From: Patescibacteria group bacterium
GTDB lineage: Bacteria; Patescibacteriota; Patescibacteriia; Buchananbacterales; UBA6539
Reading direction: 5' to 3'
DNA length: 64,000 nucleotides
Assembly (NCBI GenBank): GCA_041662625.1
Contig: JBAZSB010000002.1
Span: 12,024-76,023, forward strand
A model generated the notes under the pieces. It worked only from the letters and a program-made list of their open reading frames with translations, had not been told where the DNA came from and ran no database searches. The translations under genes were made by a program, and so were the position numbers. Shown here piece by piece: positions 2,835 through 32,954 of the stretch (its first letter is position 1; every line of letters begins with the position of its first letter).

Positions 2835-2938
2835 TAATCTATTATATCAAATAAACCCAAAAAGAAAAACCCAGGGCAACAGGGTGCACTGGGCTGCCAA
2901 GAGACTTGGCAAAACTTGGTTAGGACGTGGGGCGAAAG

Positions 2939-3541
2939 TCAGACTTCAGCCCGCGTCGGATCCTTCCCTTGTGATCGCAACGGCGGCAACGTCGGTCCTC
3001 CTGAACCAGCCCTGGCCTTCACGGTTGGGTCACCAGCATGTGCCGGCGGCGGAGTGTCCAAAGCAGACGCAACCATTGGCGGCGGCGGGCTTCCGGCCTT
3101 CACCGGGGCACTGGCCATCGCGACCGTAGGCGCAGCCGCGGCTGACTGGAACGCTGAGCCAACCTGGAGCAGAGCCACTTCCTTCAGCGCGCTAAACCAC
3201 CGGAGTACCTGGCCTTTGGGAGAAACCAGATTCTCGTTCAGGTGTCGGATCAGCGTCTCAAAATCCACCGATAACGGCAGATTGGTCGGCAAAAATCCGA
3301 ATCCGTCTTTGGCCCACCCGGGCGGCTGCAACACTTCTGGTCGCCAGCTCTTCTTCGCCTTGGCGGTAGGGACCACTTGGCTCAGCTCGAAGATGGCGAG
3401 AACAAAGCCGCCACCTCTGACCACCAAGACTCCGTCTCCTGCCTGCTTCACTGCGGTAGGGGCCAAGGCTCCTACCTGGCCGTGGTATGTCGACTGCGAC
3501 AACAGTTCGACTGCTCCGTCTATTCGAATCGCATCCATCAT
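2939..3541 (-). CDS. Hypothetical protein with a Pro/Ala-rich C-terminal tail (GC-rich insert)
   Basis: 200-aa ORF with the strong RBS AGGAGGG 7 nt upstream of ATGATG. A globular ~130-aa N-terminus is followed by a low-complexity A/P-rich tail. The opposite-strand ORF 2916..3584 looks like a shadow ORF. Confidence 0.45.
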   Translation of the reverse strand: MMDAIRIDGAVELLSQSTYHGQVGALAPTAVKQAGDGVLVVRGGGFVLAIFELSQVVPTAKAKKSWRPEVLQPPGWAKDGFGFLPTNLPLSVDFETLIRHLNENLVSPKGQVLRWFSALKEVALLQVGSAFQSAAAAPTVAMASAPVKAGSPPPPMVASALDTPPPAHAGDPTVKARAGSGGPTLPPLRSQGKDPTRAEV

Positions 3542-3715
3542 GGTAAACGCCCTCCTATCCTTTCCTTGTTGTCTCCTTCACTAGGAACAACTCAATATTG
3601 GCAAATTTTTGCTTTTTTGTCAATCCCTAATTATATTGACGGCATGCCTAAAATATGTAAAAATTGAATTTATCCCTTGACGCAGCAGCTGGGAACAACC
3701 CATGGAGGGAGAAGT

Positions 3716-4144
3716 ATGCACCAACTCGCAGTAAAACAGCAACCGGATGCATTTGTGGTTGCCATCAACGAGGGAGCACTGAGTCATGGCGCTGAAGCCA
3801 GTGGCACCCTAAAGTGCGTCCAAGTCATGCAAGGCCGACGTCATGTCGACCGCGAAGCAGTGGCCGGCGCGATGTTTCTCTGTGAGGCGGATTTTCGCCC
3901 GCGCGAAACCTTCACGCCCGGAGATGGCACGCCGGTACCGGCAGAAAGTGAGGTCGTCTTTGTCGGCCTGGACAAAGTGCCCAAAAGGCGACTCCCGGAG
4001 AATCCGGGCTTCTATGATGTACATGGCGTCACTTTGTCGACCAATGGCCGAGTTGCCATTACCTTCGGCTCTGAGTCGATATTTGTCCCTGTACCCGCAC
4101 CGCGGAAAGTTTCCCAACATCCAAGCTCCGCAGTCCGAGTCTAG
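3716..4144 (+). CDS. Hypothetical protein (GC-rich insert), divergent from 2939..3541
   Basis: RBS GGAGGGAG lies upstream of the internal ATG at 3716 (MHQLAVKQQ...). A candidate TTGACG-N16-TAAAAA promoter lies upstream and a stem-loop plus T-run terminator follows. Confidence 0.45.
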   Translation: MHQLAVKQQPDAFVVAINEGALSHGAEASGTLKCVQVMQGRRHVDREAVAGAMFLCEADFRPRETFTPGDGTPVPAESEVVFVGLDKVPKRRLPENPGFYDVHGVTLSTNGRVAITFGSESIFVPVPAPRKVSQHPSSAVRV

Positions 4145-5141: not shown

Positions 5142-7421
5142 CTATTTTGTAACCAACTTTTTGGCCGGCACACTTTGGCCAAATTTCTTTTCTGGCTGAG
5201 CCGAAGACAATTCATTAAGCCCAGCTTTAGTTGACAGCGAAAAACAGAACTTGGAACCTTTGTCGGCGCCTTCGCTTTCCACCCAAATCCTGCCCCGATG
5301 AGCATCAATAATCATTTTCGCTACGTAAAGCCCCAACCCCACGCCTTCGGTATGAACTCGGAAGCTGCCTTTACCCCGGGAAAATTTGCGGAACAATAAA
5401 GGCACCATGTTTTTTTCCACGCCGCGGCCGGTATCTTTAACGCAAAAAGTAATCAAATCTTTTTGGGGTTCATGCAAAAATGAAACGATAATTTCACCTT
5501 TTTCCGTATATTTAATGGCATTATCAACAAAATTCATCATCACTTCATGAATCTTATTGGGATCAGCGGTGATTTCGGGAGTGGGAACTTTTGGTTTATT
5601 AAATAATAATGTTAGATTTTTGGCTGTAGCGGTATTCTTCAAATTATCAACTACAGTCTGGGCAATATCTTCCAGGCGAACTTTTTTCCAGTCAAATTCC
5701 TGCCGGCCTGATTCAATCCGCGAAATATCAAGCAGATTTTCCACCAGTCCAATCAGCCGTTCGTTGGAAGCATAAACTTTTTCTAAATTCGCCATGATGG
5801 TCGGCGAAACCGGACCAAAAGATCCTTCACGCATCATCGAGATATAACCTTTAATCACAGTCAAAGGCGTGCGCAGCTGATGCGAAGCAATGGAAATAAA
5901 TTCAGACTTGGCCTGATCCAGCTGGCGCAGCTCCTGATTAGCTCTGCGCAACTGGGCAGTTTTACGCCGGACTTCTTCCTCCAATTTAACATTGAAATCT
6001 TTCAACTCATCATAAAGCCGGGCGTTTTCAATAGCAATACCCGCTTGACCAGAAATAAGTTTTAAGACATTTAAATCCTGACGGTTATAGGGATCACCGG
6101 ATTTTTTCGTACCAAAGGCAATTATCCCGATTAGCTGCTCTTTGACATACAGAGGAATAATCAAGGCAATATCGTTTTGATAAAGCGACAAAAGCAATTT
6201 GGCATCAACCGGCTGGAATTCGCCATTCTCATACCGCGTTTTCATTTCATCAATAACTAAAATACCTTTAATATTCTTTAATTCCTGGTTTAAAATTTTA
6301 ACGACATTGGGATAATTAGCCAATTTTTCGGCTTCCAGCGGCACGAAACCTTCCTGATAAAAAATTTCCAACTTGTTTTTTTTATTCAAAAGCACAACCC
6401 CGATTTTTTCACAGTGTAAGGACTCAACCAAAGTTTTGGCAATAGAAGCCAAAAGATTATGTAAATCCAAAATTGAAGAAGTAACTTCGGCAATCTGGGC
6501 CAACAAAATATCAGGGTTATATGACTTTTTATAAAGAAAGCGGTCAGTGATTCCTTCAATAGACCGGCGCAATGGCTGATAAGTAACAGAAACTAAAATT
6601 CCAACAATCAAACCAGAGATTAGATTTGATTTAAAGCCAAGAATGTCCTGAAAAAAAGTGGCGATTACGCCAGAAATAATGGCAAAGGTGATAGTAATAA
6701 CCAGAACAAAAAAACCAAAAGCTAGAGAACGGAAAACAACCAAACGAATATCCATTAAACGATAACGGGTAATGGCATAAGCCACAAAAACTACCATTAT
6801 AATTGTTCCAGTTGGACCTACCCAATTATATTTCGTGGTAAAAAAGAACAGAATTAAATTAGTGATTACGGCAATAATTGTCGAGGCTATTGTCCCCAAA
6901 AACAAATACCATAATTGTAAACGTGAAGTGCCCGAAGATTTTAAAAATTTTGTAACTAAATTAGCAAACGCCCAAGCCATGAATATAAAGGTAACAACTG
7001 AATGAATGTAATATCCCCATCCCACTCTAGCATCTATCTCACCATTACTATGTACAACCGCATCAGCAATAATAGAATGGGGAATTAAAGAAATAGTCCA
7101 TATTATAATTGGAGGTAAAAATAAAATTAGTTTAATTAGTTTGCTCTTGGGAAATTCACCTTTAGGGAAAACAAAAGAAAAATATAAAAAGAAGACAATT
7201 GTAAAATTGACTGCAAAATATACAAATTGTCCCCAAAAATAAACTGTTGCAAGTGTGGCCATCCTAAAAAAAGCTATACCAAAGCACCAAGCCGCAATAC
7301 CAAGAATGGTAATAGCAAAAAGAATATTAGACTTGCTTTTCTTATTTCTTATATAAACAAAAAAAGACAAAAATAAATTTATTACTCCTACAACTAATAA
7401 AATTATATTGCTATAATGCAT
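5142..7421 (-). CDS. Sensor histidine kinase: N-terminal 7TM sensor domain - GAF - HisKA - HATPase_c
   Basis: 759 aa with ~7 N-terminal TM helices, a central GAF-like region, the H-box SIASHQLRTPLTVIKGY, N/G1/G2 boxes (DNAIKYT, DTGRGV, GVGLGL) and a coiled-coil linker. Confidence 0.85.
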   Translation of the reverse strand: MHYSNIILLVVGVINLFLSFFVYIRNKKSKSNILFAITILGIAAWCFGIAFFRMATLATVYFWGQFVYFAVNFTIVFFLYFSFVFPKGEFPKSKLIKLILFLPPIIIWTISLIPHSIIADAVVHSNGEIDARVGWGYYIHSVVTFIFMAWAFANLVTKFLKSSGTSRLQLWYLFLGTIASTIIAVITNLILFFFTTKYNWVGPTGTIIMVVFVAYAITRYRLMDIRLVVFRSLAFGFFVLVITITFAIISGVIATFFQDILGFKSNLISGLIVGILVSVTYQPLRRSIEGITDRFLYKKSYNPDILLAQIAEVTSSILDLHNLLASIAKTLVESLHCEKIGVVLLNKKNKLEIFYQEGFVPLEAEKLANYPNVVKILNQELKNIKGILVIDEMKTRYENGEFQPVDAKLLLSLYQNDIALIIPLYVKEQLIGIIAFGTKKSGDPYNRQDLNVLKLISGQAGIAIENARLYDELKDFNVKLEEEVRRKTAQLRRANQELRQLDQAKSEFISIASHQLRTPLTVIKGYISMMREGSFGPVSPTIMANLEKVYASNERLIGLVENLLDISRIESGRQEFDWKKVRLEDIAQTVVDNLKNTATAKNLTLLFNKPKVPTPEITADPNKIHEVMMNFVDNAIKYTEKGEIIVSFLHEPQKDLITFCVKDTGRGVEKNMVPLLFRKFSRGKGSFRVHTEGVGLGLYVAKMIIDAHRGRIWVESEGADKGSKFCFSLSTKAGLNELSSAQPEKKFGQSVPAKKLVTK

Positions 7422-8148
7422 TCAATTTCTGAAAAACTTTAAAAATAAATTGATTTCTAAATATTAATCTCCCAGAATTTCCTCTCTTGAAAAACAATTG
7501 ATTATTAAAAATTTTATTACAATATGGCACTACCTCTTCAGATAAATAATAAATCGGCCAAACTGGATCTTTATTATCCTTAAAATAATTGCTCAGCACA
7601 CTCTTACAATAAACTTGTTTGAAATCTTTAATAAAATGAAAAGGAAATTTTAATTTTTCAAGCTTCAGCCTTAAAGAATCTTTGATAAACGAGTAACCAC
7701 CATATATATTATTTTCTAAAGCATAATTCATTACAGTATATGTCAATCCTAATAAAACTAAATGTCGAGGTAAAAACGATTTTTCATCATAGCGCTCCAC
7801 GATTAATCGACCGAGTTCAGCCCTTTTATTTCTAGGAATTTTGGAAATTTCTAATGGCTCTTGGAATTGAAAACAATCTTTCTCTGTCGGCAAATATTCA
7901 TCTCGGATTAATCTCACGGTACCAATAATCCTATCATCAATTTTAGCTATAAAATAAACACTCCGGCCATCATCATAGTCATCAACTTCTTTCTCTTCTT
8001 GATTTCTAATAATATAGCTACGTTCTAAATAAATCCTATATCTAAATTTATACATCTCAACCAGCTCCTCATTATGATCTGGCATGCCAAAATAAATTGT
8101 CTTTTCATTCTTATTTATTCTTAAGCTGATCTCGTTTAATACTTTCAT
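7411..8148 (-). CDS. GNAT-fold N-acyl amino acid synthase / autoinducer-synthase-like acyltransferase (Acetyltransf_5-like)
   Basis: 245 aa with YKFRYRIYLERSYI...DDYDD...YFIAKIDDRIIGTVRLI...ELGRLIV, which matches the NAS/LuxI-like GNAT core pattern. Overlaps the upstream methyltransferase by 38 nt; alternative start at 8085. Confidence 0.5.
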   Translation of the reverse strand: MKVLNEISLRINKNEKTIYFGMPDHNEELVEMYKFRYRIYLERSYIIRNQEEKEVDDYDDGRSVYFIAKIDDRIIGTVRLIRDEYLPTEKDCFQFQEPLEISKIPRNKRAELGRLIVERYDEKSFLPRHLVLLGLTYTVMNYALENNIYGGYSFIKDSLRLKLEKLKFPFHFIKDFKQVYCKSVLSNYFKDNKDPVWPIYYLSEEVVPYCNKIFNNQLFFKRGNSGRLIFRNQFIFKVFQKLNAL

Positions 8149-8854
8149 AATCTCTTGGCTTTATCGCTGAATTTAATATTGCCTGACCGGCATAGACTAA
8201 TTTATTCTCTGAAACTTCGACGAAACCATTACGAATGAGCAATTCTTTTTGTTCATTATCCTTCATTAAATGACCCGCTCCTTCATTTTTTTTGATCTTA
8301 GAATTGTAGTAAAACATCTTAACGGTAGGAACGATCATTTTAAAAACTTTTAAAATTAAACACCAAAAACCTATCTTTTTAATATCTTTTTTAAAATGAT
8401 CTTTATAAATATTCACTGGGTTCCAACCTTCTCGGACATTTGAGATAACAATTTTTCCACCTGGTTTTAAAATTCTGTAAAACTCCTTAAAGACTTTATC
8501 TCTATCTCCAGGGGCTAAAGTATAAATAACATTGTTTGAAACTATCTTATCAAAATAATCATCTGAAAATGACAAAGGCTTAGCTAAGTCATGAAATATA
8601 ATTCCAATTTCTTGATCTTTTACTCTAAGTTGCCTTAAACCTTCTTCGCTATTATCTAAGGCGACCACATTCGCCCCTCTTTGTTTTAATCTTACTGCTA
8701 AATTGCCTGTTCCAGCCCCAGCATCTAAGACTAAATCTCCTTTATTAACTACAGATTCTTTGATCAGTTCTTCCATTAATTCTTGGTAAGGAATAACAAT
8801 GTTCAAGATATCGTAGGTTTTAAAATACTGCTGCCAGAATTCTGCATCCAACAT
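8111..8854 (-). CDS. Class I SAM-dependent methyltransferase
   Basis: 247 aa with motif I VLDAGAGTGNLAVRL and motif post-I/II (VVALDNSE, IVSNNVIY). Confidence 0.8.
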   Translation of the reverse strand: MLDAEFWQQYFKTYDILNIVIPYQELMEELIKESVVNKGDLVLDAGAGTGNLAVRLKQRGANVVALDNSEEGLRQLRVKDQEIGIIFHDLAKPLSFSDDYFDKIVSNNVIYTLAPGDRDKVFKEFYRILKPGGKIVISNVREGWNPVNIYKDHFKKDIKKIGFWCLILKVFKMIVPTVKMFYYNSKIKKNEGAGHLMKDNEQKELLIRNGFVEVSENKLVYAGQAILNSAIKPRDYESIKRDQLKNK

Positions 8855-8859
8855 ATAAC

Positions 8860-9534
8860 TTAATCCTTCTTATAAATAAACCTGACCAAAAGAATTATCA
8901 TTGGTAAAGAAAAATATGGTCCTAACCAATATGGTCCGAGTTGCAAAAAAAATAAAGGGGCCAAAGCGGCAAAAAATGAGGCAAAAATTCCAATTATTGC
9001 CGCAGCAGTCATCATATAAGTCAATTGCGTTCTGATAAATCCCTGACTTATTTTGTATTTCTGGAATAAAGTATAAAAAGCCAGAATAACATAAAAATAG
9101 AAATGAATATTAAAGTATGTAATGCCCAGCCGACCCAATAAGTAAGTATTATTTGAGGGCCTTAAGATAATTTCTTTAACCCAGATGCCCGGTATTATTG
9201 TTACTAGAATCATAACAACAATACTTATTCCGATTAACAAAACCTGCCAAGATTTTAAAATTTTACTTTGATAAGGAAAATAAATGGAAAGAAAAAAGAA
9301 AGGAATTACTAACATTGCTCCTGACCCATTTTGTACCCAGGTCCAAATCCAGGCTGTCTGCACGGTTTGCGCTTCCCGAAAAAGCGCCATGCCCAGCGTC
9401 CAAGTACCTACCAAAAAAACCGTTATGGCAAAAGTGATATTAATTTTATTTTTTGGATTCCTTAGCCAGACCAAAAGTGCTAAACCGATATTGAGTCCGG
9501 CGACAATAATTAATCCAATATTTGTCCAGTACAT
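8860..9534 (-). CDS. Stand-alone 7TM membrane protein paralogous to the N-terminal sensor domain of the adjacent histidine kinase
   Basis: 224 aa with 6-7 TM helices. Its N-terminus MYWTNIGLIIVAGLNIGLALLVWLRNPKNKINITFAITVFLVGTWTLGMALFREA aligns with the kinase N-terminus MHYSNIILLVVGVINLFLSFFVYIRNKKSKSNILFAITILGIAAWCFGIAFFRMA. Confidence 0.6.
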   Translation of the reverse strand: MYWTNIGLIIVAGLNIGLALLVWLRNPKNKINITFAITVFLVGTWTLGMALFREAQTVQTAWIWTWVQNGSGAMLVIPFFFLSIYFPYQSKILKSWQVLLIGISIVVMILVTIIPGIWVKEIILRPSNNTYLLGRLGITYFNIHFYFYVILAFYTLFQKYKISQGFIRTQLTYMMTAAAIIGIFASFFAALAPLFFLQLGPYWLGPYFSLPMIILLVRFIYKKD

Positions 9535-9714
9535 AAATTTTTAAAACCTCATTTTAATCATGTAATCTTAGATTCACCAATAAAAATAAGTCCAACCTAA
9601 TTTTAATTATACCACAAAACCCGCTGTTTTACATAACCAAATACCTATGTTAACCAAAGTCCTTCTGATTAACATATGTTAACCTACTTTCCCGTAGTTA
9701 ACAAAGAAAAAAGC

Positions 9715-9762
9715 CCCCTTTCCTGCTGTCAGGCAAAAAAGAGGGTTTAGGTTTGATCACAA
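9715..9762 (-). terminator. Rho-independent terminator downstream of the giant CHAP protein gene
   Basis: On the minus strand: hairpin CCTGACAGCAGG followed by GGGGGCTTTTTTCTTT. Confidence 0.5.
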
Positions 9763-9778
9763 GGTGCATCTAGCTTGT

Positions 9779-12700
9779 TTACGGCCCCAGATCCCGGTAC
9801 TTCAGCGAGTAGCTGCAACTGCTGCCCACGGAGTAGGCCCGGATGCGGAGGTAATACCAGCCGGTACTGTTTGGTTTATAGGTGAAGCTGAACTGAAGAT
9901 TACCACCGCTGTCATCGTTGTAGGCAACGCGGACAGTGCCGGCAGAATTGGAGTACAGCTCACCGTAGTCATCGCCAATGCCGCCAGTTGTGTTGAAATT
10001 GTAGCGGCGGCCGCTTACCAGATACACTCTGAACCAGTCGTAGCGATCGGCGCTCGACAAGGTGTGGGGTCCGTGGGCCTGTTCCGTAGCCGTCGGGTTA
10101 TTCAACACTGTGGAACCGGAAACAATGTTGTCAGCCGGATCCCAAGCATCATTGGCAGGCGGTGGCGGTATGACGGCCAAATCCCGGTACTTCAGCGAGT
10201 AGCTACAATTACTACCTACTGAGGAGGCCCGGATACGGAGGTAATACCAGCCGCTGACTGTCGGCGCATAGGTAAAACTGAACTGCAGGTTACCACCACT
10301 GTCGTCATTGTAAGCGACGCGAGTGGTACCCGTTGCATTGGAGTACAACTCGGCGTAATCATTACCGGTCCCGCCAGTTGTGTTGAAATTGTAGCGACGG
10401 CCGCTTACCAGATACACCCTGAACCAGTCGTAGCGATCCATATTGGAAAGCGTATGTGGTCCATGGTTCTGCTCTGCAGTGGTCGGGTTGTTTAGCACTG
10501 TGGCGCTGGAGACAATCCCGTCAGCCGGATCCCAGGCGTCGATAATAGGTGTTGGAATAGTAGTAATATTCGACTCCAGCACCGTACCATCAACTTTATC
10601 CTGCAGGATAATGAACACTTGGGGTGGTGGCGCTTGGCCTAAGGGCACAGCAAACCAAATCCTGGTCAGGTCAGAGGCTTTACCAAGAGCACAGAAGCCG
10701 TAGATCCGACGTCGACTGCCGTCTGGTTTTGCCTCATAGATCTCAACCCAGGTTCGAGCGGCACTGGTGTTAAGGCCGCAAGTCACACAGTAGGCTGAAC
10801 TGAAAATCCGGTCAGGATATTCAGCCCAGTTACTGATTGACAAGAGATAGCGGGTCCAGTTACCACTGGAGGTGCTGTATTCTTCACTGCCAATGATGGT
10901 GAGCTGAGGAATTGGAACCAACTCCAAAGGCGAAATCACCTCAAAGGTAACGCCTCCTTCATTGTTGCTTTCATCCTCCTCGCTCACCTCGCTGTCACAG
11001 TCAGCATAAGCGCGCCAAGTGAAAATCCCGGAGCTGTCACAATGATCCAGATCAAAAATCACTTCCGCTGTCTGGCCAGAAGCCAGGGCCGGCAGGCGTT
11101 GCTTCAGGAAAAAATTGTTCCAGGTCAAGCCAACATTGAAAGCTGGCGCATCAACCGGACCAATATTTCCTGCCACAATAGTTACCTTGATCGGATCACC
11201 AGTCCAGGGATCAAGAGGATCGACTGAACAGTTCATGATGACGCAGTCAGCTCGCCGCGGTGGCAGGACTGTCACTGAAGCGCTTGCGGAGTTGTCGCCT
11301 TCGTTGCTTTCGGCCACAACATTGCCACTGTCAACGACCGCAGTCACCGTCTGTGTCCCTTCAGCTGTCAGATTGAAATTGACACTGAAAGGCACACTGC
11401 CACCCGCGGGAATCGCCGGCAGGTCAACAGTTGCTGTCTGCCCGCTGAAACTGATGGCCAGTTGGCAGACGCCAGAGGCCTCATTGCCACTGTTAGACAT
11501 TACACCCGAAACCGTGGCTGTTCCGCCAACTCGCAGTTCAGCCGGGCTGACTGAAAGGTTTGCAAGTGTCAGGTTAGGTTGAGCCGGCGGCGGCAAAGCT
11601 TGGATGATTGTCGATTCAGAGTTATCACCTTCGTTATACTCAGCAATAACCCCGGTTGAATCAACATAAGCATCCACCTTATAGCTGCCTTCGGCCTGTA
11701 TCCCGAGGTTGAAGGTGTGGTAATACACTCCGCCGTGAGACAAGCCGTCGATCTCAATGGCTTGACTGCTCTGGCCGGCAATGCCGACCGTCAGCACAAA
11801 CGGCGTATTGATGTTCACGTCGCCATCATTAATGATCCCAACCTGAATGCAAAGAGGATCACCAGTATGAACTTCGGCTGTTGCCAGTTCAAGTGATACA
11901 AACTTCAACTGGGCTTTTAGATCGGCTTCGTTAATAACCTTGAAACCGACTTTGACTTGGCAACCTTCAGCCGCCTGATTGATGACGTGCCAAACGTCGT
12001 TAATCCGAACGCAGGCAACCAGATAGTAGTCACCGGGTTCAGTCGAGACGTAGCTGCTGCCGACACTGCCGCTTTTCGTCTGACCCGGTTGTAAAGTTAC
12101 GGGCGTCGACATGTAGCTGGAGAAATCAACCCAGACGTTTTCGGGCAACCGGTAGGGGAAAAGCGACGGGCCTTGGTAGGTCACCACTTGGTCAGTCGGA
12201 TTTTCCACGGTGTAAGTTATCCTGGGACAAACATAGGGCAAATACGGCCCAGTGCTATCCTCGGTTAACCCAGCGACCAGCCTAAGCGGCGCTTCGGGAA
12301 AAGGCGGTTGAGGCGGTGGTTCGGGGTCAGGCAGCTTTTCCACGACAGTCACGGTCACTCTCTCTGACTGAATCGACCGGTCGTCGTAAAGCTCAATCCA
12401 TGTTTCTGCCGTACCGATGTTATTGGCAATGATGTAGCCATTGTCACCGGAGATGACAAAGACACTTGGGCTAGACGAAATGAAAAGCACTTGCACCCCA
12501 GTCATCTCATTGCCGTACTGGTCAAACACTTGAGCCGTGGCCCAGCCGTCCGTGGCATACTGCCAAGTAGTTTGCGTCAGATTGATCCGCAACGTTGTTG
12601 GCGTGGGTGCCGGTGTTGGCGGGGGCGGGGGTGTAGCTTCGGTTGTCACTGTCACCTCGTTGCTCCAACCAAAAACCAGCTCGCTGGCCGTAACTGCTGC

Positions 12701-14176
12701 CAGCTGATAGGTGCAGCTATGGCTTGGCTCCAATGGATAATCAGTCCACTGAGTAAAGCCACTGACCAGTTTGGCAATCTTTACCCCGTCACGAAACAGC
12801 CAGAGAAATGGCGCATACGGGTAGGCCGTGTTTTGCCACTGGAGGAACGCCGAGTTGTAGCCATCAGCAGTACCTTGCAGGGTAAAGCTGCCGGGATTTC
12901 CCGGGCCAGTAATGGTCACGATATTGGAGACATCAAGCGCGCCAGTACTATTGGACATGGCAAAGACTTGATATTGCCGTGTGCTGCCTGTTGGTAGGCC
13001 TGCTTCAGTGAATTCCCGAAGTGTGGTCTGGCCGATTTCAGTGCCGTTGGCAAACACGGCGTAGTAGTCGCATGTTGGACCACCTTCAATCCAAATAGTG
13101 TTGTGGTTTTCTGACATCGGTTTGCCGGTCAGAGTTAGGGCACTGAATTCACCGGTTGGCTCAAACACTTCAACCAGTGTACCGTCCAGACGGTGAAGTT
13201 CTACGCTGCCTGATTTGCAGTACCCGTTTTGGAAACACTGCTGGCCGTTAATGAAGTCACTGGTCGGACAGCCTAACACTGTTCCATCGTCCATCGGCAT
13301 ATCCGGACCATAGCGCTGGCAACCGCGAGTGTTGTCCCAACGACCGTAGCGGTAGAACTCCCAATACTTGCCGGGGATCAGGTAGGCCTGACTGCCAAAA
13401 AGCGGATCATAGATGATGATCGACTCTTCACCTCGGGCGTTGCGGAAGTTCTGGCAGAGGTAGCGGAACGGAGCCCAGTTATGGACAAAGATTCCGTCAC
13501 CGTCATCGATTGGCCAACCTACGCCATCCAAACCACCGTGGCGGTTGTAGCAGTTATTGATTTGTCGATCAATCGCTTGACCATCAGCAAACCGACCAAT
13601 GACCGAAAAACCAGGATAGTGTAACCAGCCTTTGACGAAGTAGTTAGTACTAAGTCGTTCTCCCGGCTCTACTTTCCAAGTGCCATCAGCGTTCTGACTC
13701 ATTGGCAACAGACGGAATGGCTTGGTGGAATTATTGATGTTTTGTTCAAACACCTCAATTCCATCCCTCATCACCCGTGAAACAATACCGACGTGGCCAG
13801 AACCACTATCGCAGGATGTCCAACCGTTATTCCACCAAATGATAAAGTCGCCAATCTGGGGCGGTACCACACTGCTATCGTTGGAAACAGCATGGTAACC
13901 CAACCTCTCCGGCAACCGCAACCACATATTGGCTGCACATCCGACTTCGTAGTCAATCACCTTATGGTACGCGGCAGCGAATCTCTTGGCCAAGTTAACA
14001 CACTGGTATTCCGCTTGGCTGGCCGTACAAGGCTTCTCGGTGCAGTCACCATTAGAATACGCGGTGACTCCCATGAAAGAGCCAATTTCGCGTCCGTAGT
14101 CCGGACCACAGTCGTTCGGGCACTGACCTGACGCCACTGTCGCCACAAACATAACCACACAAAATATCGTTCTCAT
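9779..14176 (-). CDS. Giant secreted cell-wall hydrolase-like surface protein: signal peptide - CHAP domain - Ig-like/CARDB repeats - Pro-rich linkers - two C-terminal PPC (pre-peptidase C-terminal) domains
   Basis: Start moved to MRTIFCVVMFVATVASG (RBS GGAGGT 9 nt upstream). The CHAP motif has a Cys near YQCVNLAKRF and a His at SGSGHVGIV. NEGDNSxST repeats are CARDB-like, linked by PPPPTPAPTPT. The two C-terminal ~130-aa units (AWDPAD...RYDWFRVYL...YNDDSGGN...YYLRIRA) are PPC-like. GC is ~57% in an AT-rich backbone. Confidence 0.75.
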   Translation of the reverse strand: MRTIFCVVMFVATVASGQCPNDCGPDYGREIGSFMGVTAYSNGDCTEKPCTASQAEYQCVNLAKRFAAAYHKVIDYEVGCAANMWLRLPERLGYHAVSNDSSVVPPQIGDFIIWWNNGWTSCDSGSGHVGIVSRVMRDGIEVFEQNINNSTKPFRLLPMSQNADGTWKVEPGERLSTNYFVKGWLHYPGFSVIGRFADGQAIDRQINNCYNRHGGLDGVGWPIDDGDGIFVHNWAPFRYLCQNFRNARGEESIIIYDPLFGSQAYLIPGKYWEFYRYGRWDNTRGCQRYGPDMPMDDGTVLGCPTSDFINGQQCFQNGYCKSGSVELHRLDGTLVEVFEPTGEFSALTLTGKPMSENHNTIWIEGGPTCDYYAVFANGTEIGQTTLREFTEAGLPTGSTRQYQVFAMSNSTGALDVSNIVTITGPGNPGSFTLQGTADGYNSAFLQWQNTAYPYAPFLWLFRDGVKIAKLVSGFTQWTDYPLEPSHSCTYQLAAVTASELVFGWSNEVTVTTEATPPPPPTPAPTPTTLRINLTQTTWQYATDGWATAQVFDQYGNEMTGVQVLFISSSPSVFVISGDNGYIIANNIGTAETWIELYDDRSIQSERVTVTVVEKLPDPEPPPQPPFPEAPLRLVAGLTEDSTGPYLPYVCPRITYTVENPTDQVVTYQGPSLFPYRLPENVWVDFSSYMSTPVTLQPGQTKSGSVGSSYVSTEPGDYYLVACVRINDVWHVINQAAEGCQVKVGFKVINEADLKAQLKFVSLELATAEVHTGDPLCIQVGIINDGDVNINTPFVLTVGIAGQSSQAIEIDGLSHGGVYYHTFNLGIQAEGSYKVDAYVDSTGVIAEYNEGDNSESTIIQALPPPAQPNLTLANLSVSPAELRVGGTATVSGVMSNSGNEASGVCQLAISFSGQTATVDLPAIPAGGSVPFSVNFNLTAEGTQTVTAVVDSGNVVAESNEGDNSASASVTVLPPRRADCVIMNCSVDPLDPWTGDPIKVTIVAGNIGPVDAPAFNVGLTWNNFFLKQRLPALASGQTAEVIFDLDHCDSSGIFTWRAYADCDSEVSEEDESNNEGGVTFEVISPLELVPIPQLTIIGSEEYSTSSGNWTRYLLSISNWAEYPDRIFSSAYCVTCGLNTSAARTWVEIYEAKPDGSRRRIYGFCALGKASDLTRIWFAVPLGQAPPPQVFIILQDKVDGTVLESNITTIPTPIIDAWDPADGIVSSATVLNNPTTAEQNHGPHTLSNMDRYDWFRVYLVSGRRYNFNTTGGTGNDYAELYSNATGTTRVAYNDDSGGNLQFSFTYAPTVSGWYYLRIRASSVGSNCSYSLKYRDLAVIPPPPANDAWDPADNIVSGSTVLNNPTATEQAHGPHTLSSADRYDWFRVYLVSGRRYNFNTTGGIGDDYGELYSNSAGTVRVAYNDDSGGNLQFSFTYKPNSTGWYYLRIRAYSVGSSCSYSLKYRDLGP
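9790..10565. repeat. Tandem duplication of ~390 bp (2 units, ~88% identical) encoding the two PPC domains
   Basis: 9790-10175 versus 10180-10565 share long identical runs, for example cccggtacttcagcgagtagct...ggaggtaataccagcc...gccagttgtgttgaaattgtagcg.cggccgcttaccagatacac.ctgaaccagtcgtagcgatc. Confidence 0.85.
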
Positions 14177-14231
14177 TTCTCGATACCTCCATATTGTCAA
14201 AGGTCTATGGTATTTCTCTTCTACTCACATC

Positions 14232-14262
14232 GTAGAAAAGGGAGCTTTTACAGAAAGCTCCT
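14232..14262 (-). terminator. Rho-independent terminator for the lipoprotein gene
   Basis: On the minus strand: GGAGCTTTCTGTAAAAGCTCC followed by CTTTTCT. Confidence 0.55.
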
Positions 14263-14340
14263 TAAAAAAATCAACATAGAACTTAATCTCTTTAAGGAGA
14301 TCTCTGGCGCTATGTTGATTATGGTCTTAGAATTTTAATT

Positions 14341-15030
14341 TTACTTCGTCGATAAAAACTTAAAACTGGATAAAATTTCGTAATAAGTTGGCAAAAACCT
14401 ACTATTTGAATCCAAATGCTCTGCTAATACAAAAACTATTTTATCATTATTCATTAAACAAAGATTTTTTTTGATAAATCTTTTATCGTTATCCATAATA
14501 TAATTAATTGAAAAAACCTTTTCACCATTAATATCCTCAAATCCTTTATCTAAAATGTTCAAATTATTATATTTATCATTCCAAATTGCATCAGAATATA
14601 ATATTAAATCTGTATCACACCATTGCTTATTGTTTTGGCCGGCATGACCAAGATCATTATCATCAGCTAAAAGAAAATGAAATTCCATATAAATTTCATC
14701 TTCCGGGACAAATACACTATTGCCGCTAGGTTCATAACGAGAAGCGAGTTGAATAATTGATCCCCCAGCATATAATTCCCAACGAGGGGGATACTTAAAC
14801 TCAAACCCATATTCCTCATTCCAATAAGTTTTCCAGTTACTCGTGTCTATTGCTTTAGTAGTTGTGGCAGTGTTGGTATTTACATTTTGATCTATCGGCT
14901 GATTCGTATTTTGATTTACATTCTGGTTCTGATTAACTACCGGATTCGGCTTTTTCAGGCACGCCGAAACAGCCAGGCTTAAGCCAGCTAAAAGGGCAAT
15001 AATTGCGAGTTTTTGGGTTAGTTTTTTCAT
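14341..15030 (-). CDS. Putative lipoprotein with an Asn/Gln-rich low-complexity region
   Basis: Signal peptide with lipobox-like LAVSAC, then NQNQNVNQNTNQPIDQNVNTN, then a globular domain. Confidence 0.45.
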   Translation of the reverse strand: MKKLTQKLAIIALLAGLSLAVSACLKKPNPVVNQNQNVNQNTNQPIDQNVNTNTATTTKAIDTSNWKTYWNEEYGFEFKYPPRWELYAGGSIIQLASRYEPSGNSVFVPEDEIYMEFHFLLADDNDLGHAGQNNKQWCDTDLILYSDAIWNDKYNNLNILDKGFEDINGEKVFSINYIMDNDKRFIKKNLCLMNNDKIVFVLAEHLDSNSRFLPTYYEILSSFKFLSTK

Positions 15031-24673: not shown

Positions 24674-25540
24674 TTATAACCGCCAAAGGTCGCCAGCAAC
24701 CAAATCCAGATCAGGCGACTCGAACTGCGCCAACTCAGGATGCTTCTCGACCGCAAAGGCCCAGAGCAAACTCCGTAGATAGGCAGCAACTCGCTCGCTG
24801 GTTAGCTGAATGTCGTCTCCTTGGCAAAGCTGATAAAGGGTCGTGGTGTGGTCTTGGGCCGCAATAGGCCGGCTGATCGAGTAGGTCACCCGAAAACGGC
24901 GCCAGAAAGGAAAACGCCAAGTCAAAGGCAGACGTGGCCACTGGCCTTTGTACCAAGACTCTTGACTGCCCTGATCCCAGAACAGCATGATTTTGAAATC
25001 CGCTCCCGTCCTAACAGCTTCAGCCACCAGACGACCGACTCCAGTAAGAAATGGATTTAGTATTTTATCGGCGTCCGTTCTGGTCCCTTCCCCATAGACC
25101 CAGAGAATGGCATTCCGGAATCTAGTTAGAACCTCGACTTGCCGACGGATGACTTCCCGCCGAACCGCCGCGGCACCCGCTTTACCTTTGTCCGGCAATT
25201 CGATCACCCGCAGGTGACGCAGCAGCGACCGGATCGGACCAAGGTGCTTGAGATATTTCTGTTTGCCGACAACGATAATCAGCATTGCCATATATCTCAA
25301 AACCCAGGGCCAAAGGAAGCTGTAGACGCCGAGGAAAATTCCAGGGTATGACGAATGGTTGGCAAAAATCAAAACCCGACCCTGCGTCGGGATATTGTTC
25401 CGGCCCGCCACCTGGAGACGAAAAAAAGGCAGCTTACAAATAAAGATCAAACTCGCAATCAGGGTGACGACCAGTCGATCCAGCCACCACAACACCCAGC
25501 CCTGACCTGGTTCCGAAACGTTCTGATTCTGAACCATCAA
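24674..25540 (-). CDS. Lysophospholipid (1-acyl-glycerol-3-phosphate-type) acyltransferase, PlsC/LPLAT family; GC-rich
   Basis: N-terminal TM segment, FANHSSYPG (NHxxxxD-like block I, with a G replacing the D) and YGEGTRT (EGTR block III). GC ~57%. Confidence 0.55.
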   Translation of the reverse strand: MMVQNQNVSEPGQGWVLWWLDRLVVTLIASLIFICKLPFFRLQVAGRNNIPTQGRVLIFANHSSYPGIFLGVYSFLWPWVLRYMAMLIIVVGKQKYLKHLGPIRSLLRHLRVIELPDKGKAGAAAVRREVIRRQVEVLTRFRNAILWVYGEGTRTDADKILNPFLTGVGRLVAEAVRTGADFKIMLFWDQGSQESWYKGQWPRLPLTWRFPFWRRFRVTYSISRPIAAQDHTTTLYQLCQGDDIQLTSERVAAYLRSLLWAFAVEKHPELAQFESPDLDLVAGDLWRL

Positions 25541-27540: not shown

Positions 27541-28842
27541 TTAGCCCATGTAGTTGTCGAGTTCTTCCCGACGCATCTGATCGAAGGCATACACTGCCGG
27601 ATTGGTCTGCCCCAGAATCTGCATCGCCGCTCCGATCGCGTTGCCTTCGGGCCAAGTCGTCAGATTCGGCGTCTGCGATGGCAGGTGTACGCTTGACCAA
27701 AGATCATCCGGAAATTGCTCGAGAGTCGCTGGGACCGAAATCACTGGCCAAGGACTGTGAGCCGCGACGATCGGACCCAGACCATTGGACCGGCCGGCCT
27801 TGACCACGATGACGCCACCTTGCGGATAGTCATAGAACAGCCGTTCCAGACGCTGCAGCCCCTCAACCGGACTCTTGTGGCCGGAAGCCACGATCCGTTC
27901 AACGGTGACTCCAGGCAACTGGGGAACTTTTGGTGCTTCATCCTTGTCGGACCCAAGCCAGACAACCAGCGCCTGTCTCGGGAGCACCAAGCGTTCGGCC
28001 ATCTGGGCGACGTAACGGTAGTTCTCTTCGACTTGGCCAAGGACAGCAGCGCCACCATCGCGGAACACCTGCTTATCGAGCGGTTTGCCATTTTCCCAAA
28101 GACGCCAACTGTCGTTGTCCACGACATCGGAAACTCGGAGTTCGCTGTCGGCTTCGATCTTGATGTCAAGCCATGTGAGGCCAAAGTTCGCCCAGGCCCG
28201 CTCAAGGATCAAAGACACCCGGCGAACCAATTGATCAAGCTTGGCCATATCCGCCAGATCGGTGATGACCCCACTAGCAGGAATCTTGGCAAACGGGCTA
28301 ACCCGATGTCGACTCTCACCCTCGCCCTCTTCATGCCAGATCGGCTTCTTGGGCAAGGCAAGATCCCAGGTATCCTTGAAGGGATCAAGGATCAACGGAT
28401 CGTCGCAGGGTAGTGATAGGCCTTTCCAATCTCGACCAGTCGTCTTGAGGAAGAACTCAACCAACAACCGGTGAAAACGGTACGGCTTGGTTGGATCAGC
28501 CGTTCGAAGCTGGGGATTGCGCATCAGGAAACTGCCAACTCCCAGCCGTCGGGCGACAATCTCCAGCAGCAACATCAGCGACCGCAGCGCGACAAACTCC
28601 GTTTCGGAAATCTGCTCCACGTAAGCCACCGGCACGTCGCAAGTCCGAAGAAGTTCGAAAACGCGGCAAGTGGTTATGGTAGCACATTGGGCTTTGGACC
28701 CAAACTTCTGGGTAAAACTCGGGTCATCATGGGCAGTGATGTCCGAACCATTCCTGACGATCACCAGATCGTCTCGGCCTTCTACTGCGAAGATACCCTT
28801 GGTTTTGCCCTTGGCTATCTGCTTACCTAGTGTATACTCCAT
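27541..28842 (-). CDS. purC-purE: Bifunctional SAICAR synthetase (PurC) - N5-CAIR mutase/AIR carboxylase (PurE) fusion, PAICS-like
   Basis: The N-terminal half has PurC blocks (GKTKGIF, DDLVIVRNGSDITAHDD, WLDIKIE). The C-terminal half has PurE blocks (VVWLGSDKDE, IVASGHKSP similar to SAHRTP, AGRSNGLGPIVAAHSPWPVISVP). GC ~60%. Confidence 0.75.
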   Translation of the reverse strand: MEYTLGKQIAKGKTKGIFAVEGRDDLVIVRNGSDITAHDDPSFTQKFGSKAQCATITTCRVFELLRTCDVPVAYVEQISETEFVALRSLMLLLEIVARRLGVGSFLMRNPQLRTADPTKPYRFHRLLVEFFLKTTGRDWKGLSLPCDDPLILDPFKDTWDLALPKKPIWHEEGEGESRHRVSPFAKIPASGVITDLADMAKLDQLVRRVSLILERAWANFGLTWLDIKIEADSELRVSDVVDNDSWRLWENGKPLDKQVFRDGGAAVLGQVEENYRYVAQMAERLVLPRQALVVWLGSDKDEAPKVPQLPGVTVERIVASGHKSPVEGLQRLERLFYDYPQGGVIVVKAGRSNGLGPIVAAHSPWPVISVPATLEQFPDDLWSSVHLPSQTPNLTTWPEGNAIGAAMQILGQTNPAVYAFDQMRREELDNYMG

Positions 28843-28863
28843 GGCATTCCTTTCTCCGACTTT

Positions 28864-29397
28864 TCAGCCGATCTGTTCCTGGTCTTCCGAATCTTCCGGT
28901 CGACCTTCCGATCTCTGACCACAACGGTCACAACCGTCACACTGGTGACCCACGGCAAACCGTTTCAACTCATCGAGCATCTCCAGCACTCCCGCTGCGG
29001 GTTGACCGGATTTCTCGAGTACGGCATCAGCGACCTTGATCGAACATTTGACGCGTAGCGCCACGGCAATGGCGTCGCTGGGCCGCGAATCAACCTTGAC
29101 GACCCCGCCTGCGGTTTTCAACTCGATATAGCCCAGGAAAATCCCGTTACCAGTGAGTTGGTTGATGCCAACTTCCAAAACCTCAGCATCCAAGCCAGCC
29201 AAGATGTTCACGATTAAGTCGTGGGTCATCGGCCTTATAGGCACTTGACCAGCCAAGGCCATACCGATGGCCACAGCTTCGGCTGGACCAATCATGACTG
29301 GTAAGATCAGAGCCGCCGCTTCACTGTGTAACAACACTGTTGGTCGACCTTGGCTATCCTGGACTACAGCCAACGCATGGAGTTCTTGTCTATCCAT
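28864..29397 (-). CDS. Bifunctional-nuclease (BFN/DUF151) family protein with a Cys-rich acidic C-terminal tail
   Basis: The PSDAIAVALR motif and domain length match BFN; the C-terminus carries CDGCDRCGQ. Confidence 0.55.
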   Translation of the reverse strand: MDRQELHALAVVQDSQGRPTVLLHSEAAALILPVMIGPAEAVAIGMALAGQVPIRPMTHDLIVNILAGLDAEVLEVGINQLTGNGIFLGYIELKTAGGVVKVDSRPSDAIAVALRVKCSIKVADAVLEKSGQPAAGVLEMLDELKRFAVGHQCDGCDRCGQRSEGRPEDSEDQEQIG

Positions 29398-29476
29398 CGC
29401 ATTCTCTCCTTATGTGGAGTAAGGGTGGGCCAGCCCGGCAAAGGACCGGCCCACACCAGTTTCAGGTTGGAGAACT

Positions 29477-30745
29477 CTACTCCGGCACTTTCCCGTCGGG
29501 ATAAAGGACCGAGTGGCCCTTGCCCTGCGAGATCAGCGACCGGTACGTTTCGAGTGCCGTTTGAACGGCCGGATCAGTCAGGTCCAGTGTCTGGCGTTTC
29601 TCGGCGGCCATATAGGCGGCCTGACAGAGCCTGGTGATTTCCAAGCCGTATTCCCAGTTCAACAGTCCGTCATGGCCTTCACGGAAAGCATCACGGGCAT
29701 CGACCTGCTCATCAACGTAACCGTAAAGGTCGGGTTCGTTGGGCTGAACAGCCAGAAGGCCACGCGAAGCCGTCGACTTCTCCAAGGCCCCCTCGGCATC
29801 GGTCACGGCTTCGGCCGCGGCATCGCCGATGAAGACCTCAAGCGACGAACGCAAGGAGTTGACCTCCAAAGCATAGCCCGGGCCCATTCCTTCCATCGAG
29901 AGTCGGAGGCCCTGCTTGTCGTACATCCAAGAAGTGGCAAACTGAGCCACAACACGCTGCCGGGTCTCCGGATTCTCAAAGGTGACCAGACCGGTGGCGA
30001 AGTCTTCGGCCGGAACCAACGCGTAGTCAACGCCCATCCTCTTCAGGAGTTGGGCTCGATACTTGGGCTGGCCCCACTTCAGAAGCAGGGTATCGGCCCC
30101 AATACTAACCGGCCTGAGGAATCTCAGATCCTTGCCGACCGGTGTCAAAAGACGCCAAAGCACCGCGATGGTGTGGCAAGCCATGTCCGAAAGGACACCG
30201 CCACCTTGCCGGGTTGCATCCCAGAACCAACCCTCGTGGGGTCCAGAATGTTCTTCGCCGCCACGAGCCAAAACCAACGGCCCCATCTTTCCTTGGACGC
30301 GAGCCAGACCTTTCAGCCCTGCTTTGATGGCTTTCATGTGGATCTGGTTCTCGAAGTACGAGGTCGGGCAGCCGAGAGTCTTGGCCAGCTCAACCATACG
30401 GCGAGCCTCGGTAATGGTTCGGCCCAACGGCTTTTCGCAGATCAGCCCTTTGGGTTTCTTACCCAGTCTCGTCGCCGCATCGACGACCTGTTCCATCAAT
30501 TCAACGCGGAACGGATTCGGGGCGAAATTGGCAATCACGTCGCAATGCTCGACAAGATCGGCGACGCTTTTGTATACTACGCAATCAATTTCGCCGGTAG
30601 CGGTGGCCTTAGCGGCCAGTTGTTCCGCACCCTTCAGGGCGTGGACACCGCCGAATTCCAAACCAGGTACCAACTGGTTGGCGGCCTGCTGGAAATTGGC
30701 AACAAATCCAGCACCCATCGATCCTAGTCTGAGGATTTCCTTCAT
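29477..30745 (-). CDS. Gfo/Idh/MocA-family NAD(P)-dependent oxidoreductase
   Basis: N-terminal Rossmann fold, the EKP motif (LICEKPLGRTITEARRMVELAK) and length 422 aa; RBS AAAGGAGAG. Confidence 0.75.
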   Translation of the reverse strand: MKEILRLGSMGAGFVANFQQAANQLVPGLEFGGVHALKGAEQLAAKATATGEIDCVVYKSVADLVEHCDVIANFAPNPFRVELMEQVVDAATRLGKKPKGLICEKPLGRTITEARRMVELAKTLGCPTSYFENQIHMKAIKAGLKGLARVQGKMGPLVLARGGEEHSGPHEGWFWDATRQGGGVLSDMACHTIAVLWRLLTPVGKDLRFLRPVSIGADTLLLKWGQPKYRAQLLKRMGVDYALVPAEDFATGLVTFENPETRQRVVAQFATSWMYDKQGLRLSMEGMGPGYALEVNSLRSSLEVFIGDAAAEAVTDAEGALEKSTASRGLLAVQPNEPDLYGYVDEQVDARDAFREGHDGLLNWEYGLEITRLCQAAYMAAEKRQTLDLTDPAVQTALETYRSLISQGKGHSVLYPDGKVPE

Positions 30746-30873
30746 CAGTCTCTCCTTTCAATCAAACACTGTCTCCAATCTCTCTCCCGCCCTGAAACAG
30801 ATCAGGCCGGAACACTTCTTTTTGTTTCTTTGCCGTTTCTCCTTCCTTATCTTTTGTAACTTCCCTCGCTTGG

Positions 30874-30946
30874 TTGTGAAAAAACAAGTCTTTCCCTCCC
30901 TTTGGAAAAGACTATTAAAACTGGGTTTAATTTAACAAAAAAAAGC
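30874..30946. promoter_or_regulatory. Conserved ~73-bp upstream element, copy 1 (second copy at 34510..34590), containing the palindrome AGTCTTTCC-N9-GGAAAAGACT
   Basis: ttgtgaaaaaacaagtctttccctccctttggaaaagactattaaaactgggtttaatttaacaaaaaaaagc compared with ttgtcaaaaaaacaaagtcttcccctcacgttggaaaagacttttccctacaaaactggctttaatttaacaaaaaaaagc. Both lie 5' of minus-strand operons. Confidence 0.6.
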
Positions 30947-30982
30947 TATAAAGTCAATCACATGATGCTAATCTACAATTTA

Positions 30983-31014
30983 TGCGAATGATAATAATAT
31001 TCGCAACATTCGCA
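30983..31014. promoter_or_regulatory. Perfect inverted repeat TGCGAAT-N9-ATTCGCA plus a third ATTCGCA half-site (candidate operator)
   Basis: tgcgaat gataataat attcgca ac attcgca; AT-rich and lies ~240 bp upstream of the oxidoreductase start. Confidence 0.5.
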
Positions 31015-31226
31015 TACTACTCGCATCCATTATCATTATATTAAAAAAAGGACCAGACAACCTTCTTCATCTCGCCGAATCCGCTTTCAAGCGGAGAAGG
31101 CGGGACTTGGTCGTTATGGTCCCTTGGATCTCAATAGTGTACAAAACCCTCCTTAGTCTCGCCGTAGTCCGAAGGACGTAGGCGGATTAGTCTCGCCGTA
31201 GTCCGAAGGACAAAGGCGGACTTGGG

Positions 31227-32924: not shown

Positions 32925-32954
32925 ACTCGTCTCTCTCCTTTTCTCTCTCTGTTC

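Follow-up and report, generated by a model that had tools for sequence, protein, structure and literature searches.

The 64-kb window analysed here, a stretch of 64,000 nucleotides (nt) of contig JBAZSB010000002.1 (positions 12,024 to 76,023; assembly GCA_041662625.1, Patescibacteria group bacterium), contains a gene for a protein of 1,465 amino acids (aa). From its sequence, we lean slightly towards the reading that this protein is a Sec-exported modular peptidoglycan hydrolase acting as a polymorphic stalked lysin on the wall of another cell. Comparison across the family to which it belongs demonstrated that a scaffold consisting of an LGFP-like module and a stalk is kept, while the predicted N-terminal catalytic head and C-terminal binding module are exchanged.

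Domain anatomy and exchange of ends in the hydrolase family

A set of 5.8 billion clustered proteins contained only seven full-length relatives of the window protein. When the N-terminal 331 aa were used in an exhaustive HMMER scan against 1.84 billion representatives, 157 matches were obtained, 15 of them at E ≤ 1e-30. A family member was present in one of 185,579 species genomes, and ten loci were found in metagenomes (the locus scan of species genomes was performed with an alignment of four family sequences; the alignment of all seven relatives was too divergent). The closest relative, locus L002, originates from the landfill leachate well LW4 in Southern Ontario. The family is very small; its members belong to a handful of related uncultured bacteria known from landfill leachate and several further metagenomes.

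CHAP heads were found in the window protein (P0001) and in P0002, P0003, P0005, P0007, P0008, P0009, P0011, P0022, L017, and L019. Peptidase_M23 heads occurred in P0004, P0006, P0010, P0013, P0019, P0035, L018, L020, and L021, with intact HxxxD and HxH motifs in the first three of them. The head of P0033 was of the NlpC/P60 type, and those of P0027 and L022 were Peptidase_C39_2-like. The C-terminal ends were represented by PPC domains (window protein, P0004, and P0155), Laminin_G_3 (P0007 and P0033), Disaggr_repeat/CBM96 (P0005 and P0013), or CARDB-like domains (P0002, P0003, and P0006). A variable enzymatic domain on a conserved scaffold is a feature by which polymorphic toxins are recognized, and the CHAP, M23, NlpC/P60, and C39-like heads display this pattern.

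Divergence between the window and L002 was measured as identity at synonymous third positions. The flanking genes had values of 0.64–0.72, and aa 239–513 of the hydrolase, comprising the second LGFP repeat and the FN3 pair (91% aa identity), had a value of 0.70. The CHAP head (0.42), the CARDB region (0.47), and the C-terminus (0.34) had lower values. The middle of the hydrolase gene has diverged together with the genome, and both ends coalesce much deeper than the genome. Since the divergence of the ends greatly exceeds that of the flanks even at synonymous sites, this pattern indicates allelic replacement by recombination and not just fast protein evolution.

Two loci differed in gene structure. 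In L009 (10001–15022), the hydrolase region was split into an open reading frame (ORF) with CHAP, LGFP, and FN3 domains (536 aa) and a following CARDB/Ig protein (530 aa); the split ORFs were followed by a 545-aa gene orthologous to window positions 1248–2834. In L010 (10001–12185), the M23-headed P0010 stopped after 463 aa, had an unrelated tail, and overlapped the next ORF; a frameshift or truncation of the family gene may explain this structure.

The hydrophobic N-terminus of the window protein, predicted to be a Sec signal peptide (Table 1), had a similar counterpart at the start of every family member. An N-terminal lipoprotein anchor for the hydrolase was considered and rejected because the residues at position -1 were not lipobox-like, although most members have a cysteine close to the signal-peptide end. 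Several members had clear AxA-type cleavage sites after this cysteine. The head that follows has the papain-like CHAP fold and matched Pfam CHAP (PF05257) with 38.4 bits on aa 55–146 (cut-off 26) and with 34.8 bits on the whole protein. Its best solved sequence match was the glutathionylspermidine (Gsp) amidase of E. coli. The cysteine of YQCVNLAKRF (C59), the histidine of GSGHVGIV (H128), and E144/N146 aligned with the QCV, GHV, and EQN motifs of this enzyme, respectively; the title of PDB entry 3a30 refers to a C59 modification. All family members of the CHAP type retained the catalytic residues. These data support an intact Cys-His-Glu(Asn) site, as expected of a predicted peptidoglycan hydrolase, and the catalytic cysteine and histidine proposed in the original prediction are both present in the alignment.

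The LGFP-like module was the most conserved part of the family. It has a repeat fold consisting of a helix and a 3–4-stranded sheet, as in MytA, and is a putative cell-wall-binding module. The Pfam LGFP profile (PF08310) missed it, and no Pfam family matched aa 185–345 at E ≤ 1. A single bridging protein, P0038, carried the module twice (33% identity, E 1e-13), and the Pfam LGFP profile matched the second half of one of these copies (E 4e-10).

The AlphaFold2 model of aa 340–770 (predicted local distance difference test, pLDDT, 80.5) comprised four beta-sandwich domains arranged as beads on a string. Foldseek related this stalk model to FN3/Ig arrays, S-layer proteins, and the grappling-hook protein of Aureispira. 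Pfam fn3 matches were present in relatives, and the Ig-like/beta-sandwich segment had only weak Big_1/Big_14 Pfam matches. When the segments were searched separately, the three CARDB repeats (PF07705) matched with E values of 4e-12, 1e-17, and 1e-10 (46.8, 64.3, and 41.7 bits; cut-off 22.7). Together, two FN3, one Ig-like, one further beta-sandwich, and three CARDB domains form a rod of about seven beta-sandwich domains. The segment at aa 1085–1206 had no Pfam match at E ≤ 1, and in the family alignment it stood opposite nothing but gaps in the other members. The first PPC unit (PF04151) scored 28.7 bits against a cut-off of 25.9, a narrow margin, and two stretches were matched in the whole protein. 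The earlier description of a secreted multidomain CHAP protein with a CARDB/Ig stalk and duplicated PPC domains agrees with the Pfam matches, the alignment of catalytic residues, and the model.

The 390-bp tandem PPC duplication noticed initially was borne out: the units lie at 10169–10558 and 9782–10168 with a period of 390 nt. Identity between them was 76% at the DNA level and 82% at the protein level, and their codons differed by 38 synonymous and 26 non-synonymous changes. Because each unit is 64–66% identical to the single PPC of the relative P0004, the duplication post-dates the split from P0004. The duplication is real but old. A recent duplication or copy-number polymorphism is unlikely, as the copies differ at 24% of bases. 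A search with the PPC pair gave only three extra relatives, at 75%, 50%, and 29% identity.

Target wall: another cell or the producer

Once the protein is exported, its LGFP repeats would hold the head against peptidoglycan, where the CHAP cysteine would hydrolyse a bond (amide or peptide) in the stem peptide or in the cross-link. Reach and a second point of attachment could come from the stalk together with the lectin-like PPC domains at the distal end. The gene directly upstream encodes a lipoprotein, which may serve as a self-protection factor for the producer. This lipoprotein has a family motif, EIDTSxWxTYRNEEYGFEFKYP, and the remainder of the protein is hypervariable. Among the loci with enough upstream sequence (the other contigs are too short upstream), the lipoprotein gene was found directly upstream of the family gene in seven, including the window, and the motif was found upstream in three more (L015, L018, and L020).

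Action on a foreign wall, be it of a host, prey, or competitor, is favoured because variable ends are combined with a conserved core and an adjacent variable lipoprotein. Exchangeable heads, deep allelic divergence at the ends, and a hypervariable lipoprotein resemble an antagonistic or host-directed system more than a tuned autolysin. Several points weigh against this reading. The target wall, own or foreign, is read from the evolutionary pattern only, which gives a foreign wall about an even chance. The N-terminal model of the hydrolase reached only moderate confidence (pLDDT 68). In the seven examples, the variable part of the lipoprotein did not visibly co-vary with the head type. No secretion-system genes were found in the neighbourhood of the hydrolase gene, and Sec is the only delivery signal. 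Finally, LGFP in MytA anchors the enzyme to the producer's own wall (PMC11299179), which fits an autolysin equally well.

A housekeeping autolysin, anchored by its LGFP repeats to the own wall and used in remodelling or daughter separation under the neighbouring two-component sensor, is a possible but rather doubtful explanation. Every related contig seen has one copy of the gene at a conserved locus, a histidine kinase is encoded next door, and the genome makes peptidoglycan (murE is present). In Bacillota, WalKR controls CHAP and NlpC/P60 autolysins. However, orthologous loci carry heads for different bonds (CHAP, M23, NlpC/P60, and C39-like), and both ends were replaced by divergent alleles on a short timescale. 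A stalk of ~1,100 residues with variable lectin-like tips is unneeded for self-remodelling, and a hypervariable lipoprotein better fits an inhibitor or immunity role.

The lysin acting on foreign walls can be pictured in a more specific form, which we regard as speculative and unlikely to hold in all its parts. The protein would be a host-contact "lysin on a stalk" of a probably episymbiotic lineage, with head and lectin-tip cassettes drawn from a shared GC-rich allele pool, a lipoprotein protecting the producer, and a switch provided by the cluster of seven-transmembrane (7TM) kinase and acyl-amino-acid genes. If true, polymorphic toxin systems would have a counterpart here that depends on Sec and is adapted to the wall chemistry and surface glycans of specific partner cells. 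Classical polymorphic toxins have a C-terminal toxin and dedicated delivery by type V secretion/contact-dependent inhibition (T5SS/CDI), type VI (T6SS), or type VII (T7SS) systems, whereas the head is N-terminal here and stands behind a Sec signal; the hydrolase is therefore no polymorphic toxin of the classical kind.

By domain membership, the hydrolase is a CHAP, CARDB, and PPC protein; functionally, it resembles modular lysins and bacteriolysins. Lysostaphin and zoocin A are secreted proteins with an M23 head, a targeting domain, and an adjacent immunity gene. Their known immunity factors are FemABX-type wall modifiers, not lipoproteins, and the enzymes have about 250–500 aa and no stalk. 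The family described here shares with them the exported lytic head and the wall targeting; it also includes M23 heads, and its adjacent gene may, hypothetically, provide self-protection.

The LGFP repeats of MytA/PS1 from Corynebacterium glutamicum (PDB 6swz/6sx4) bind the peptidoglycan–arabinogalactan wall (PMC11299179). The catalytic domain of MytA is an esterase, not a peptidoglycan hydrolase as predicted here. MytA has five C-terminal repeats and lacks stalk and PPC domains, whereas the hydrolase has two internal, highly divergent repeats together with a stalk and PPC domains. The LGFP motif of the hydrolase reads VGWP or LGCP, and its repeats, unlike those of MytA, are missed by the Pfam LGFP model. 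LGFP is also the presumed wall-binding part of a few actinophage lysins, such as gp39 of Mycobacteriophage Barnyard and the endolysin of Tsukamurella phage TPA2, which likewise combine one or more hydrolase domains with a presumed LGFP targeting part (PMC3314691). Combinatorial shuffling of catalytic modules is seen in these endolysins (PMC3314691) as well as in the present family. The endolysins, however, are phage-encoded, cytoplasmic until lysis, and much smaller, with LGFP at the C-terminus, and no phage sequence matched here. The relatives of the CHAP head with solved structures, Gsp synthetase/amidase of E. coli (3a30/2io7) and trypanothione synthetase amidase (2vpm), are intracellular, act on a polyamine–glutathione amide, and are fused to a synthetase; unlike them, the hydrolase has a signal peptide as well as wall-binding and stalk domains.

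Secreted peptidoglycan hydrolases and giant surface proteins were predicted in Vampirococcus lugosii, a predatory or epibiotic member of the Candidate Phyla Radiation (CPR) (PMC8080830). The logic proposed there is alike, with hydrolases breaching the host wall and giant beta-rich proteins serving for attachment (PMC8080830). The two functions reside in separate proteins in V. lugosii and in one polypeptide here, and the likeness is one of logic. A literature search on CHAP in Patescibacteria gave no match. Modular wall hydrolases are well known; the swapping of heads and tips on an LGFP-like anchor and stalk at one locus is apparently undescribed, as far as we searched. If it acts on partner cells, the protein is a candidate tool with which small uncultured bacteria could open or take hold of another cell's wall. 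For enzyme engineering, the family also represents a natural collection of head–anchor combinations.

Base composition and origin of the gene

The hydrolase gene had a GC content of 53.0% and a GC content at third codon positions (GC3) of 57.6%. The initial impression of a GC-rich gene in AT-rich surroundings was correct for the local island; the GC content is lower than the ~57% proposed then, and the gene is not unique in the window in this respect. GC steps were sharp at both ends of the gene. Its immediate neighbours had GC contents of 28.9% (FeeM), 31.7% (methyltransferase), 32.5% (lipoprotein), and 34.8% (7TM protein), and the core genes rpoB, rpoC, recA, and ftsK had 40–45% (core GC3 0.38). 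The step is exaggerated by these neighbours, since no other genes in the window are as AT-rich. Six of the 40 other window genes had a GC3 equal to or higher than that of the hydrolase gene (z = 1.36), and several other segments were GC-rich (Table 1). As expected from the original prediction, the codon usage of the hydrolase gene differed from that of the backbone, with a distance of 1.45 to the core; the distance to the other GC-rich genes (purine block) was 0.58. Because other GC-rich blocks share its GC3 and codon usage, the gene is part of a GC-rich compartment of a mosaic genome and not a lone island. GC content was even over all hydrolase domains (0.50–0.57), and lysine made up 1.8% of residues.

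In all 12 AT-rich loci for which flanks were available, the GC content of the family gene exceeded that of the flanks (44–55% vs. 27–40%), and the excess was also present in distant members whose kinase neighbours are only 30–58% identical to those of the window. In L009, a GC-richer relative, the family gene (53%) matched the nearby tsaD (54%) and HU (55%) genes, and the kinase cluster was the AT-rich outlier; the ortholog of window gene 1248–2834 had a GC3 of 0.66 there vs. 0.37 in the window. Since the GC excess recurs across family loci, the anomaly is inherited with the family gene, in a lineage whose genomes are mosaic. We infer that GC-richness characterizes the gene family and is not a mark of recent host capture. 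This reading has one point against it: the purine block of the window, which does look foreign, has the same codon usage as the hydrolase gene. The GC-richness could be kept up by repeated replacement from GC-richer relatives or by GC-biased conversion at a recombination hotspot, and its source might be an old transfer into the ancestor of the lineage. As a caution for such analyses, a sharp GC step together with "foreign-looking" domains does not amount to evidence of host capture: here the anomaly is passed on within the family, and the flanks themselves are atypical. Persistent GC-richness in AT-rich genomes merits a population-genetic test.

An assembly chimera, in which GC-rich DNA of another organism was spliced into an AT-rich contig, is suggested by the sharp steps at both gene ends and is scarcely credible. 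A second assembly (European Nucleotide Archive, ENA, contig L001) was 100% identical to window positions 8455–18297 over 9,843 bp, which makes both GC junctions reproducible. The same step was found at orthologous loci assembled by JGI, ENA, NCBI, and Logan, and the steps coincide with intergenic regulatory signals. The last ~300 nt of L001 (9844–10146) depart from the window near 8455; the breakpoint falls within the methyltransferase gene and may reflect strain variation or an end artefact of the assembly.

The hydrolase ORF spans positions 9779–14200 on the minus strand with the stop codon at 9779–9781, and the product of 1,465 aa results from the ATG at 14176. The ENA assembly independently contained a gene call with exactly the same product. 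The 13-bp hairpin of the terminator-like structure is followed by a U-run and lies 34 nt past the stop (-18.9 kcal/mol, z = -1.9). Thus, the real single gene with a GGAGG ribosome-binding site and its own terminator, as read originally, was recovered from the ORF, the spacer, the hairpin, and the ENA call. The unit looks monocistronic because the upstream lipoprotein gene is closed by a separate terminator-like hairpin at 14261–14241.

It had been proposed that an epibiont captured the gene from a high-GC host of actinobacterial type and repurposed it for remodelling of or attachment to the host wall. We consider this improbable. In its favour, GC3 and codon usage are unlike the core (0.576 vs. 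0.38; distance 1.45 vs. 0.58 to GC-rich genes), lysine is scarce (only 1.8%), and the LGFP-like fold, a module absent from the original prediction, is documented mainly in Actinomycetota and actinophages (PMC3314691; PMC11299179). However, the Pfam LGFP model does not detect the module here. The nearest CHAPs outside the family had about 35–40% identity at most over the CHAP part, with E ≥ 1e-11, and no close outside homolog (none above roughly 40% identity) that could represent a host donor was found among the 1.84 billion representatives. Forty outgroup proteins formed a recognizable CHAP subfamily with the shared motifs F.GV.AYSNG, YQCVE, GHVAIV, EQN, and GWLR. Their partner domains were sorting tails of the type IX secretion system (T9SS; 8 of 40), FlgD_ig, CARDB, VWA, and ChW, with LGFP in one of 40; these architectures do not appear actinobacterial, and the nearest outside CHAPs resemble those of Bacteroidota and other phyla. 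The closest homologs instead lie at syntenic loci in related AT-rich genomes, at least six of them, and are GC-rich there too, which is essentially the outcome that the original prediction had said would speak against it. The gene is not absent from the syntenic site, and in L009 it matches the local housekeeping composition. The borders carry no mobility signature: no tRNA, integrase, or flanking repeat was found at the gene, no tRNA within the 64-kb window, and the sole flanking direct repeat (24 nt, 75% identity) was at chance level. Recent transfer from a host is largely refuted by these data.

Origin as a phage or prophage lysin, i.e., an endolysin or tail-associated lysin on an integrated element, was rejected as very improbable. 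There was no PHROG family match, no tblastn match in 50,697 phage records, and no relative in 2.9 million viral contigs. The neighbouring genes are chromosomal and conserved, with no phage genes among them, and a Sec signal peptide and a size of 1,465 aa are atypical of phage lysins.

Locus and other features of the window

Table 1. Positions of the hydrolase gene, its predicted domains, and other features in the 64-kb window
Feature	Position	Strand	Basis or remark
Hydrolase coding sequence, 1,465 aa	9779..14176	minus	ORF list, directly read ATG and ribosome-binding site, identical ENA product, homologs
GGAGG ribosome-binding site of the hydrolase gene	14186..14190	minus	read in the sequence, 9 nt before ATG
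Predicted Sec signal peptide (MRTIFCVVMFVATVASGQ), aa 1–18	14123..14176	minus	by eye from the translation; without canonical lipobox
CHAP cysteine amidase/peptidase domain, aa ~25–190 (C59, H128, E144/N146)	13607..14104	minus
Two LGFP-like repeats, putative cell-wall-binding module, aa ~204–330	13187..13567	minus
Two FN3-like beta-sandwich domains, aa ~348–511	12644..13135	minus	AlphaFold2 model, Foldseek, fn3 hits in relatives
Ig-like domain, aa ~526–614, and further beta-sandwich, aa ~632–747	11936..12601	minus	model; each after a Pro/Thr-rich linker
Three CARDB repeats, aa 762–855, 866–965, and 979–1073	10958..11893	minus	Pfam
Segment of ~120 aa without family match, aa 1085–1206	10559..10924	minus	Pfam, family alignment
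Two PPC domains from a 390-nt tandem duplication, aa 1207–1465	9782..10558	minus	Pfam, direct repeat
Intrinsic-terminator-like hairpin and U-run of the hydrolase gene	9714..9745	minus	terminator scan, fold energy
Upstream 229-aa lipoprotein gene (lipobox LAVSAC, N/Q-rich linker, motif IDTSNWKTYWNEEYGFEFKYP, variable C-terminal part)	14341..15030	minus
AT-rich cluster: 7TM-GAF histidine kinase, FeeM-like N-acyl amino acid synthase, methyltransferase, small HisKA_7TM protein	5142..9534	minus	Pfam
GC-rich block	2916..4144		~60% GC
Acyltransferase	24674..25540		53% GC
Purine-synthesis block	27541..34481	minus	53–58% GC
GC-rich stretch	41869..42336		51% GC

The family gene occupies a stable chromosomal address in its lineage, since the same neighbours recur across loci without marks of an island. 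Flanking orthologs of the window and L002 had 65–86% protein identity (tblastn). HisKA_7TM proteins and/or a 7TM-GAF kinase were encoded within a few kb of the family gene in the window, L002, L006, L009, L011, and L012. The 7TM cluster (27–37% GC) includes stand-alone HisKA_7TM proteins, an acyltransferase resembling FeeM and autoinducer synthases, and a methyltransferase; the small-molecule enzymes that accompany the kinases vary between genomes (FeeM-like acyl-amino-acid synthase, methyltransferase, and aminotransferases). This cluster may be a signalling locus. The lipoprotein had a weak PsbP_2 Pfam match.

Positions 15132–18264 of the window, lying between the hydrolase locus and an asparaginase gene, encode a PIF1-like helicase with HTH_40, a PolB-exonuclease-like protein with RNase H fold, and an NYN-domain protein. 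The equivalent position of L002 carries a LexA-like repressor and a type I restriction-modification system. The segment is variable between conserved anchors.

The window is chromosomal, as it contains rpoB, rpoC, ftsK, recA, ychF, murE, glyA, and folD; no rRNA, tRNA, or Rfam match was found in its 64 kb. The window RpoB (1,148 aa) scored best against RpoB chains of 1,183–1,266 aa, which we take to be Bacillota enzymes, and lower against the E. coli chain of 1,342 aa. The sole species-representative genome with a family member, GCA_964535715.1 (8-kb contig CAZHUO010000043.1; L008/L006), is labelled "uncultured Gammaproteobacteria bacterium". This label is doubtful for the lineage because of the lower score of the window RpoB against the E. 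coli chain, and either the label or the binning of the 8-kb contig may be wrong. In its sequence features, the window would fit a bacterium of CPR/Patescibacteria-like or other monoderm type.

In the purine block, a 433-aa fusion of SAICAR synthetase and AIR carboxylase matched animal PAICS (4ja0, E 1e-44; 2h31, E 3e-42) much better than bacterial PurC (E 1e-11), and the purH, purB, purC, and purE products were far below the NCBIfam cut-offs for bacteria. This block may be an acquisition of non-bacterial type. At 2916–4144 (57–61% GC), two ORFs overlap (2916–3584 on the plus strand and 2939–3541 on the minus strand), and a third lies at 3677–4144; no Pfam or NCBIfam match was obtained for them. 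The region at 57–64 kb, considered as an ORF-free stretch, was found instead to hold one very long open frame (at least 2,224 aa; 57328–64000, plus strand) that runs off the window end. It has no Pfam match, starts with an N-terminal hydrophobic segment, and contains many degenerate repeats with GNATTTG and NVGIGT motifs.

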